Shown here: piece after piece, positions 22,474 to 25,266 of the stretch
Layout of the letters: each line of letters starts with the position of its first letter
Numbering within the stretch: position 1 is the stretch's first letter
Assembly (NCBI RefSeq): GCF_055900595.2
Contig: NZ_CM148325.1
Length of the DNA: 64,000 nt
Strand: one strand, 5' to 3'
Translations under genes and position numbers: made by a program
The notes under the pieces: generated by a model
Told to the model about the DNA's origin: nothing
Seen by the model: only the letters and a program-made list of their open reading frames with translations
The model's database searches: none

Positions 22474-22482
22474 TAGATAAAA

Positions 22483-22557
22483 GTATTTATGTCGCCCTGC
22501 CCGGAGCCATCCCGGCGGGGCTTTTTATTGCAATAAAAAAGCCGCCAGGTTTGACCC
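22483..22557. terminator. Back-to-back terminators between convergent uspG and ahpF
   Basis: Hairpin ...gccctgcccggagccatcccggcggggc + TTTTT serves uspG on the plus strand; gccgccaggtttgaccccggcggc with an A-run on plus (T-run on minus) serves ahpF. Confidence 0.7.
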
Positions 22558-22594
22558 CGGCGGCTAAGCAATTGCAGGTGAATCTTACTTCTTC

Positions 22595-24160
22595 TTATGC
22601 TGTTTTGGTGCGAATCAGGTAGTCAAAAGCACTCAGAGAGGCTTTGGCACCTTCGCCAGTGGCGATGATGATCTGCTTGTACGGAACCGTTGTACAGTCA
22701 CCCGCAGCGAACACGCCTTTGACGTTGGTTTCGCATTTCGCATCAATGATAATCTCGCCCATGCGGTTACGTTCGACTGCGCCTTCGAGCCAGTTGGTGT
22801 TCGGCAGCAGACCAATCTGGACGAAAATACCGGCCAGTTCGATGTTGTGAATATCGCCGCTGACACGATCGCGATATTCCAGACCAACAACTTTGCTGCC
22901 GTCGCCTTTCACTTCCGTGGTTTGCGCATTCAGAATAATGTCGACGTTTTTCAGGCTGCGCAGTTTGTCCTGCAGAACCTGGTCGGCTTTCATTTCTGGC
23001 GCAAATTCCAGCAGAGTTACGTGCTCAACGATACCCGCCAGGTCGATTGCCGCTTCCACGCCGGAGTTACCGCCGCCGATGACCGCTACGCGTTTGCCTT
23101 TAAACAGCGGGCCGTCGCAGTGCGGGCAGTAGGTCACGCCTTTGGTGCGATATTGATCTTCGCCCGGAACGTTCATGTTACGCCATTTTGCACCGGTCGC
23201 CACGATAATACTGCGTGCTTTCAGTACCGCGCCAGAAGCTGTTTCAATCTGATGCAGGCCGCCTTCAACCGCTGCCGGGATCAGTTTGCTGGCGCTCTGG
23301 CTGTCGATCACATCAACGTCGTATTCATCAACGTGAACTTTCAGCGCACCTGCCAGCTTCTGCCCTTCGGTCTTCGGTACAGAAATGTAGTTTTCGATAT
23401 CAACGGTATCGAGGATCTGACCACCAAAACGTTCGCCCATCAGACCAGTACGAATACCTTTACGTGCGGAGTAAATTGCTGCCGCTGCACCCGCAGGGCC
23501 GGAACCAACGATTAATACGTCATAAGCATCACGCTTGTTCAGCTCTTCTGCCGCACGTTTTTCCGCGCCAGTATCGATTTTGGCGACGATTTCGGAAATA
23601 GTCATGCGGCCCTGACCAAACTCTTTCCCGTTTACGAACACTGCCGGAACGCCCATCACGTTGCGATCGGTGATTTCGTTCTGGAAGGTGCCGCCGTCAA
23701 TTGCCGTATGCTTGATGCGCGGGTTCAGTACGCTCATCAGGTTCAGCGCCTGCACCACGTCCGGGCAGTTGTGGCAAGAGAGCGAGTAATAGGTTTCGAA
23801 TTCAAAATCACCGTCAATATGGCGAATCTGCTCCAGCAGAGACTGCGCTTCTTTCGACGGATGACCACCGGTCCACAACAACGCCAGTACCAGCGAGGTG
23901 AACTCGTGGCCCAGCGGGGAACCTGCAAAACGTGGCCCCTGGTTGGAACCTGGGTTAGTGATCAGGAAAGACGGCTTACGCACCGGCAAGCTGTTATCTT
24001 CTTTAAAGGTGACTTTGTCTGACAGTTCTGCGATTTCAGCCAACAGTTCCTTGATTTCTGCCGATTTAGCGCTGTCATCCAGCGTGGCAATTAACTCAAC
24101 AGGCTTGGTCAATTTCTCAAGGTAAGCCTTGAGTTGAGTTTTCATATTTGTGTCGAGCAT
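22595..24160 (-). CDS. ahpF: Alkyl hydroperoxide reductase subunit F (flavoprotein disulfide reductase)
   Basis: ORF trimmed to [13 protein letters not shown]... (521 aa), AGGAG RBS; CxxC motifs (CHNC, CPHC) and FAD/NAD folds. Confidence 0.95.
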
Positions 24161-24330
24161 GTTTATCTCCTGGGCTTTAAACATCATCATGCAAGCGGCC
24201 TCTGCGGCTACCTGGATGCAGCTTGCATCATGGTGCGGGGAAGAAAATCGGGTGCCGCAGCACCCGAAGAATTAGGTGAATTTCCGAAGTATTTCGCGCC
24301 GGAGTTGGTAGCGCGAAAGACGAAGGAAAT

Positions 24331-24894
24331 TTAGATTTTACCAACCAGGTCCAGAGACGGAGCCAGAGTTGCTTCACCTTCTTTCCATTTAGCCGGGCAA
24401 ACTTCACCTGGGTGAGAAGCTACGTACTGTGCTGCTTTGATTTTACGCAGCAGGTCAGACGCGTCACGGCCAATGCCTTCAGCGGTAACTTCGATTGCCT
24501 GGATGATACCCTGCGGGTCAACAACGAAGGTCGCACGGTCAGCCAGACCTTCATCTTCACGCATGTTGTCGAAGTTACGGGTCAGGGCGCCAGTCGGGTC
24601 GCCGATCATCGCATATTTGATTTTAGCGATAGTTTCAGAGCTGCTGTGCCATGCTTTGTGGGTGAAGTGAGTATCGGTAGATACTGCGTATACATCTACG
24701 CCCAGTTTCTGCAGTTCTTCGTAGTGGTCAGCAACGTCACCCAGTTCGGTCGGGCATACGAAAGTAAAGTCAGCCGGGTAGAAGAAGAAGACGCTCCAGC
24801 GGCCTTCGGTATCTTTTTCGGTGATTTCGATGAATTCGCCGTTTTTGAATGCCTGGTTTTTAAAAGGTTTAATTTTGGTGTTAATCAAGGACAT
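24331..24894 (-). CDS. ahpC: Alkyl hydroperoxide reductase subunit C (2-Cys peroxiredoxin)
   Basis: 187-aa [24 protein letters not shown]... with peroxidatic FTFVCPTE and resolving VCP motifs. Confidence 0.97.
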
Positions 24895-25266
24895 CTATAC
24901 TTCCTCCGTGTTTTCGATGAGATGTAAGGTAACCAATTTTTGCCGATTCGGCTAATGCGTTTCCATTATCAAATCGATAAGTTTTACCTTACAACCGTCG
25001 TAAGACAACTTTGTGAACTTTGCACCGCCAGTGGCGATAAAAAGTAAAATGGGCCCTCTTTCCAGGTGACCGTGTAATCTGAACTACCCTTTGGTATCTT
25101 CAGCGCCTGCCTGCAGGCTGTGGTGTTGCCCTTACAAATGCAACAACGACATGGATTACAACACCCTCATAAACAAAGGGCAATCACCTGATCTAAGCTC
25201 TTACCTATGACAGTGATAGGTTATGCCTTTTACTCCATTTTTGCACTGACTGAAAAGGACAAATTA
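24895..25266. promoter_or_regulatory. Divergent ahpC / dsbG promoter region (expected OxyR-controlled)
   Basis: 372-bp spacer between divergent starts; OxyR control of ahpCF and dsbG is established knowledge. Exact operator not resolved from sequence. Confidence 0.5.

Follow-up and report, generated by a model that had tools for sequence, protein, structure and literature searches.

How can two neighboring genes on one transcript be expressed at very different levels? AhpC is among the most abundant proteins of E. coli, where its decamer works with a much scarcer AhpF dimer (cited in PMC5371410), and the spacer between ahpC and ahpF is the place where one promoter region yields unequal outputs. 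In the window analyzed here (the whole 64,000-nt stretch from contig NZ_CM148325.1, NCBI RefSeq assembly GCF_055900595.2), this spacer carries three consecutive inverted repeats, which a preliminary description had read as stacked hairpins consistent with partial termination or attenuation, or else with an internal ahpF promoter. We find instead that the spacer consists of three unrelated, independent elements on the minus-strand ahpCF transcript: an ERIC remnant, a terminator, and an RNase III site. Each element is of a known kind, the RNase III site has already been published for exactly this locus, and no new mechanism comes to light.

Anatomy of the ahpC-ahpF spacer

The window around the spacer is E. 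coli DNA. A 301-nt query spanning the spacer matches many E. coli chromosomes at 100% and was found in 5,422 of 5,426 complete genomes, with ahpC and ahpF annotated on either side; the genes and the minus strand had been assigned correctly from the letters. The ahpC coding sequence (24331..24894, minus strand; 187 aa) is identical to RefSeq WP_000052796.1 and ends in a TAA stop at 24331-24333, and ahpF (22595..24160, minus strand; 521 aa) begins with an ATG at 24160 that gives the RefSeq start MLDTNMK. Its Shine-Dalgarno sequence, AGGAG (24167..24171, minus strand), precedes the ATG by 6 nt and stays free of pairing when the leader is folded to its centroid. The 170 nt between the genes (24161..24330, minus strand) constitute what we call the 'mini-ERIC' allele, whose hairpins we number along the transcript: H1 is ahpC-proximal, H2 lies in the middle, and H3 is ahpF-proximal.

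Folded as minus-strand RNA, the spacer reaches -59.2 kcal/mol, compared with -44.0 +/- 4.0 for 200 dinucleotide shuffles (z = -3.8), none of which folded as well. Structure prediction on this transcript bore out the preliminary description in that each of the three hairpins, taken singly, folds better than shuffled sequence (z = -5.2 for H1, -5.7 for H2, and -2.5 for H3). The repeats themselves are present, all within 2 nt of where they had been placed. The atgcaagc and gcttgcat arms of H3 (24189-24196 and 24221-24228) lie exactly 24 nt apart, as claimed, and their pairing runs further than had been noticed, to 20 pairs over 24181-24236. The middle repeat exists, but its parse as cgggtgc-cgcag-cacccg was off register by one base; the true arms are tcgggtgc (24248-24255) and gcacccga (24260-24267) around a 4-nt loop. 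The third repeat, ttcgcgc (24293-24299) and gcgcgaa (24311-24317) with 11 nt between, was correctly recognized but placed 2 nt away, and it is only the inner part of 21-nt arms (24279-24299 and 24311-24331) that are 81% complementary. This anatomy is directly established.

Searching the spacer and the corresponding K-12 allele against Rfam at permissive E-values gave nothing significant in the spacer: matches there were noise (SNORD98 and Mu-gpT-DE, both at E of about 5), and V_AS5 and CssrA matched weakly over the ERIC of K-12. We rejected a pairing of the 5'-end AUUUCCU with the ahpF Shine-Dalgarno sequence that appears in the minimum free energy (MFE) fold of the whole spacer; it is not in the centroid, and it also competes with the outer stem of H1 and is impossible in an E. 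coli allele that lacks the ERIC. A 66-aa open reading frame on the plus strand (24134-24334) was likewise set aside, as it crosses the region of ERIC indel polymorphism and therefore cannot be conserved.

A conserved terminator between the genes

H2 (24248..24267, minus strand) is the stem-loop UCGGGUGC-UGCG-GCACCCGA, with 8 bp, 6 of them G-C, and a folding energy of -16.6 kcal/mol; it was called by a terminator scan. Directly 3' of the stem follows the U-tract UUUUCUU (24241..24247, minus strand), where the 3' ends of ahpC mRNA are predicted to lie. Lying, as had been stated, after the ahpC stop and ahead of the ahpF ribosome-binding site, the middle hairpin is indeed a textbook intrinsic terminator by the scan. 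H2 is called only on the minus strand, sense for ahpC, and the opposite strand reads AGAAUUAGG without a U-tract, indicating that H2 is unidirectional.

We compared spacers from 22 Enterobacterales species genomes together with 55 distinct metagenomic spacers. In 76 of 78 Enterobacterales spacers, a perfect hairpin of at least 6 bp was found at the homologous position, nearly always with a T-rich tail behind it. Among 29 distinct Enterobacterales versions, 99.1% of cells are paired and five of the eight pairs have changed on both sides, as in the stem variants CGGGUGC/GCACCCG, UGGGCGC/GCGCCCA, CAGGCGC/GCGCCUG, CGGAUGC/GCAUCCG, and CGGCUGC/GCAGCCG, with the caveat that the hairpins were extracted with a hairpin finder, which favors paired cells. 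The covariation score of 0.385 (0.184 in shuffles) was reached by none of 500 shuffles and in no slid register, and sliding the partners against each other lowers pairing to 30-45%. The conservation and covariation of H2 are direct observations. The spacers of Pantoea, Erwinia, Providencia, Brenneria, and Arsenophonus measure only 68-79 nt and hold little beyond H2, with the ahpF Shine-Dalgarno sequence following at once, so read-through is the only plausible source of ahpF mRNA in these genera. A strict scan further found terminator-like hairpins in 37 of 68 proteobacterial ahpC-ahpF spacers, which makes this terminator layout a widespread one.

The E. coli U-tract is interrupted (UUUUCUU), it is weaker in many relatives (UUUCAUUCC), and it is almost lost in Leclercia (GUUAUCCCC), so some lineages may terminate inefficiently at H2. 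When the nascent RNA is folded as far as the U-tract, H1 and H2 form next to each other in both the MFE structure and the centroid, and the lack of a competing fold, together with the lack of an Rfam family, points to a constitutive terminator rather than a switch. Judged from its sequence, H2 is presumably a leaky, constitutive intrinsic terminator. Being canonical and conserved with compensatory changes, it makes partial termination, with more ahpC than ahpF message, the best reading of this hairpin. The earlier proposal that partial termination shapes the AhpC:AhpF stoichiometry accordingly stands for H2, but it does not extend to H1 or H3. We infer that partial termination takes place at H2 in vivo and sets this stoichiometry; for ahpC, the supplement of Adams et al. 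2021 lists a 3' end upstream of the gene only, and none in the spacer.

An RNase III site upstream of ahpF

H3 (24181..24236, minus strand) is an imperfect duplex in the ahpF 5' leader with 20 pairs over 56 nt and a folding energy of -23 kcal/mol. Interrupted by single-nucleotide mismatches and small internal loops, it still offers about two helical turns (some 20 bp) of mostly continuous dsRNA and is suited as a substrate for RNase III. The preliminary description did not include RNase III processing among its readings. Gordon, Cameron and Pfleger (2017, mBio, PMC5371410) reported that RNase III acts between ahpC and ahpF at MG1655 639695, a position that maps to 24218 of the window, in the upper stem of H3. 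From H2 to ahpF, both hairpins included, the K-12 sequence is identical to that of the window. Over the K-12 site, about 3,600 reads were found in an rnc mutant and 4 in the wild type, a ratio of 900, and purified RNase III cut the site in vitro; the half-life of ahpC was about 14 min in the wild type and about 6 min in the mutant, with the stability of ahpF unchanged (all PMC5371410). In the authors' proposal, ahpC keeps a protective hairpin at its 3' end once the cut is made, and the text of their paper, as far as it goes, does not give the exact cleavage positions at nucleotide resolution (PMC5371410). RNase III cleavage and its effect on ahpC half-life are thus established by the literature on K-12, in which H2 and H3 are the same as here, and H3 is an RNase III processing site by that evidence. 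The reads recovered in the rnc mutant show that read-through past H2 is substantial, and the position of the ahpF Shine-Dalgarno sequence, outside H3 and unpaired, fits the published observation that ahpF was not affected.

H3 occurs as a single copy and was found in 5421 of 5426 E. coli genomes. It is kept in Escherichia, Citrobacter, Enterobacter, Leclercia, Superficieibacter, and related genomes, and is absent from more distant genera that have H2 alone. Across the genera that keep it, H3 is invariant where the flanking spacer diverges to about 70-74%. This conservation is at the level of sequence: none of 13 consensus pairs has changed on both sides, so covariation speaks neither for nor against the fold, whose support is thermodynamic and experimental. 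Some relatives have variants of the 5' arm (AUGAUUCAAG, AUGACGCAAG) that introduce uncompensated mismatches, whereas their 3' arm does not change.

That asymmetry is why the 3' arm could have an additional, sequence-specific function. In such a scheme, the near-invariant arm GCUUGCAUGAUGAUGUUU would become the processed 5' end of ahpF, terminator and duplex would together form a conserved two-step 'operon splitter' in Enterobacteriaceae, and the arm itself could bind a small RNA or a protein, or act as a determinant of ahpF translation or decay. We regard this as quite unlikely; if true, the splitter would let AhpF output be tuned independently of AhpC, and the unusually invariant 3' arm is the only loose end at this locus with potential for novelty.

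H3 also contains AUG triplets. Within 24161-24190 (minus strand), E. coli and E. albertii carry AUGAUGAUG in the 3' arm of H3 in frame with ahpF, which yields a 531-aa open reading frame in the window, which is the length given by mechanical ORF calling, where upstream in-frame ATGs inside H3 are taken as the start. In other genera, a one-base difference (UUUUAA vs UUUAAA) closes the AUGAUGAUG frame after 4 codons. Small open reading frames from the H3 AUGs (MMQAASR* and MMMF*) were rejected, their length, frame, and stop varying between genera; MMMF* is in frame with ahpF in E. coli, and no Shine-Dalgarno sequence precedes the ORF of the 5' arm.

One E. coli assembly lacks this part of the spacer. 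In DH5alpha NZ_CP045741.1 (locus L003, 730-835; about 24150-24255 of the window), the sequence from the 3' arm of H2 to about codon 5 of ahpF is missing, including H3, the Shine-Dalgarno sequence, and the start codon, and ahpF is annotated as a different, shorter protein. This deletion is either a laboratory mutation or an assembly error.

An ERIC remnant in a polymorphic slot

H1 (24279..24331, minus strand) is an 18-pair hairpin of -19.1 kcal/mol that starts inside the ahpC stop codon. It is an internally deleted ERIC/IRU that keeps both terminal inverted repeats, 53 nt in all, and has lost the core of about 74 nt. ERIC/IRU elements were reportedly described by Sharples and Lloyd in 1990 and by Hulton et al. 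in 1991. ERICs, MITE-like repeats of about 127 bp, are co-transcribed with their neighbors and can have an influence on how mRNA decays (PMC3184786).

The identification follows from the spacer alleles of E. coli, which are 170 nt (window), 244 nt (K-12), or 128 nt long. In the K-12 allele, the H1 loop is longer by 74 nt, and these match the ERIC-PCR primers (21 of 22 positions for the reverse complement of ERIC2, 20 of 22 for ERIC1R); an alternative identification of this insert as BoxC was rejected, as it matches both the ERIC primers and full-length ERIC copies. The window spacer failed the same test for the ERIC core, with best primer matches of 13/22 and 11/22, which is chance level, and its H1 is therefore a remnant rather than a complete ERIC. 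The K-12 ahpCF copy can be aligned along about 117 nt (positions 5-121 of the 131-nt K-12 query) with ERICs found at rpsB-tsf and downstream of ybiT, and the aligned span takes in the outer arms retained in the window. As copies elsewhere in the genome align across the arms of H1, H1 is an ERIC/IRU that lost its core. Dispersed copies of the element occupy a median of 8 places in an E. coli genome.

Across about 5,420 complete E. coli genomes, roughly 1,764 carry a full ERIC at this site (about one third, K-12 included), about 2,500 carry the remnant, and 1,114 (about one fifth) carry none. The 128-nt allele has 14 unrelated nt in place of H1. This ERIC-less allele, seen for example in E. coli MEI008 (locus L002, 371-384) and O157:H7 PV15-279 and homologous to 24271-24330 of the window, is no clean excision: in this allele (1,114 genomes), the unrelated 14 nt, GTTCCGCAATCGCG, stand between TCTAA and TAATT. 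Both the repeat identity of H1 and its polymorphism are observed directly.

Across genera, the slot from the ahpC stop to the terminator may contain a single ERIC or two, remnants whose deletion end points differ, REP-like units, an ERIC plus REP, or nothing. Variable or absent across strains and genera, H1 is therefore a dispensable passenger, and it adds at most one more 3' structure to ahpC mRNA. The picture of a single stacked device accordingly fails, with H1 a mobile ERIC remnant absent from about 20% of E. coli genomes and H3 an RNase III site.

The slot acts as a landing pad for repeats. Tandem double ERICs occupy it in three metagenomic Enterobacteriaceae contigs (L095, L147, and L151), whose spacers are 373-377 nt long, and an ERIC accompanied by REP-like units fills it in two other sequences (L123 and L129). 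The full ERIC at this site in K-12 (locus L005, 1510-1634) is 95.2% identical to that of Superficieibacter electus (locus L019, 1765-1889); beside it, the ahpC coding sequences are 87.2% and the rest of the spacers 74% identical. Either the ERIC at ahpC-ahpF is more conserved than the adjacent gene, or it has moved horizontally or been re-inserted at the same site.

Other reported or possible transcripts at the ahpCF locus

Upstream of ahpC, the dsbG-ahpC intergenic region contains a match to STnc70, an enterobacterial small RNA (25039-25133, minus strand), that falls below the Rfam threshold (32.6 bits, gathering 40; E = 1.8e-4) and ends in a hairpin and a U-run. By Term-seq, Adams et al. 2021 placed a 3' end 149 nt before ahpC, at MG1655 638796(+). 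This position maps to about 25043 of the window, the 3' end of the STnc70-like match, and a short leader or small-RNA transcript possibly arises from 25039-25133.

At the other end of the operon, an Hfq-associated small RNA from the ahpF 3' UTR has been described in E. coli (Iosub et al. 2020, PMC7213987; also PMC10703908). The corresponding stretch of the window, downstream of ahpF, lies at about 22474-22594 (minus strand), convergent with uspG. The sRNA interactome papers refer to the small RNA of the ahpF 3' UTR only and do not mention the ahpC-ahpF spacer.

A probable basis for unequal output from one transcript

In the reading that we favor, with a probability of roughly 75%, a leaky terminator gives abundant ahpC mRNA and a smaller amount of ahpCF read-through, which is then severed by RNase III, with H1 along as a passenger. 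The OxyR-controlled ahpCF transcript, on the minus strand, would run through three independent elements in series. The decayed ERIC right after the ahpC stop would be a passenger that adds at most a 3' hairpin to ahpC mRNA. At H2, transcription would mostly end, so that monocistronic ahpC mRNA, with a stable, G+C-rich hairpin at its 3' end, is abundant, and the minority of polymerases that pass it would supply the sole source of ahpF message. In these read-through transcripts, RNase III would cut H3 just upstream of the ahpF ribosome-binding site and part ahpC from ahpF; the severed ahpC part may then be trimmed back to the H2 hairpin and become as stable as the terminated mRNA. AhpF would be translated from the processed leader, its Shine-Dalgarno sequence being predicted to be free either way. 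The net outcome would be more AhpC than AhpF from one promoter region.

The same observations can be arranged differently if H2 is mainly a barrier to 3' exonucleases. Most polymerases would then enter ahpF, RNase III would cut H3, exonucleases would trim the upstream product to H2, and the AhpC:AhpF ratio would come from mRNA stability and translation. The roughly 3,600 rnc- reads over H3, against 4 in the wild type, fit this account, as many transcripts reach H3; so does the more than doubled half-life of ahpC mRNA upon RNase III cleavage, as do U-tracts that are imperfect in many relatives and nearly lost in Leclercia. However, E. coli and more distant genera have a canonical hairpin with a U-run (UUUUUUG, UUUUUUUU) directly behind the stem, and a T-rich tail accompanies the covarying stem in nearly all spacers, which a mere block would not need. 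H2 is moreover retained in genera without H3, indicating that its role is independent of RNase III processing. We therefore consider it unlikely that H2 is mainly an exonuclease barrier and retain partial termination followed by RNase III cleavage as the better account.

A promoter of its own for ahpF, with the hairpins insulating two transcription units, is very unlikely. Such a promoter would spare ahpF the limit that a terminator otherwise places on its expression, the roughly 80 nt between H2 and the ATG leave enough room for it, and a 9/12 promoter-like match lies in the 3' end of ahpC (24467-24440). Yet a consensus scan of the minus strand, which weak or alternative-sigma sites may escape, found no sigma-70-like site in the spacer, and the conserved blocks from H2 to the ATG are the two arms of H3 and show no conserved -10/-35 spacing, contrary to the suggestion of an internal promoter in the preliminary description. 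Where the spacer is only 68-79 nt long, as in some genera, a promoter would not fit behind the terminator, and transcripts from the intragenic 9/12 match would still meet H2. Published work agrees: Conway et al. 2014 (PMC4161252) place three promoters at this operon, all upstream of ahpC, and Gordon et al. (PMC5371410) treat ahpCF as one operon.

Could the spacer instead be a regulated attenuator, adjusting ahpF to conditions through a riboswitch, a leader peptide, or protein-controlled antitermination? On the surface, three structures in a row ahead of a gene look like an attenuator leader, and the loop region of H2 (24254-24260) has 7 nt of complementarity to the apex of H3 (24202-24208). 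This match was rejected as a regulatory pairing: it lies downstream of the termination point, where it comes too late for the termination decision, and it is unconserved, with another E. coli and E. albertii no longer having it. Nor is there a mutually exclusive fold, with H1 and H2 coexisting in the nascent RNA in both MFE and centroid and no competing antiterminator, and the spacer has no significant match to an Rfam family. H1 is missing from about 20% of E. coli genomes, and the short ORFs at the H3 AUGs are unconserved in length or frame. The regulated attenuation raised in the preliminary description is thus highly improbable. That the inverted repeats are chance and functionless, as the polymorphic and dispensable H1 might suggest, is barely credible and already refuted for H2 and H3 by conservation and cleavage data, given hairpin z-scores of -2.5 to -5.7, the covariation of H2, and an H3 that is invariant across genera amid a diverging spacer and cut by RNase III.

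One third of the apparent 'structure' of the spacer is mobile-repeat debris that varies by strain. Data from K-12, with its 244-nt spacer and full ERIC, therefore need care when applied to E. coli lineages with 170-nt or 128-nt spacers.

Comparison with known systems

Each element has established counterparts. H1 shares with ERIC/IRU elements (PMC3184786) an intergenic location, co-transcription, and an imperfect palindrome with terminal inverted repeats, but the window copy is without the central ~74 nt, which is the whole ERIC-PCR core. The stabilizing 3'-UTR hairpins of REP/BIME elements offer another parallel, with REP-like palindromes filling the same slot in Enterobacter-, Citrobacter-, and Leclercia-like genomes; the window, by contrast, has no REP here, and the sequence of H1 is not REP-like. 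H2 resembles partial terminators within operons, for example that of sdhCDAB-sucABCD (Conway et al. 2014, PMC4161252), in placing a G+C-rich hairpin and U-tract between co-oriented genes, and as with these terminators, ahpF has no evident promoter of its own and lower expression is expected. Unlike them, H2 in Enterobacteriaceae is then followed by a dedicated RNase III duplex. That duplex belongs with the RNase III sites that stabilize the upstream product, described at ahpC-ahpF and pflB-pflA (PMC5371410): H3 is the K-12 ahpC-ahpF sequence itself, and the strain of the window differs from K-12 only upstream of H3, where it carries a mini-ERIC instead of a full ERIC.
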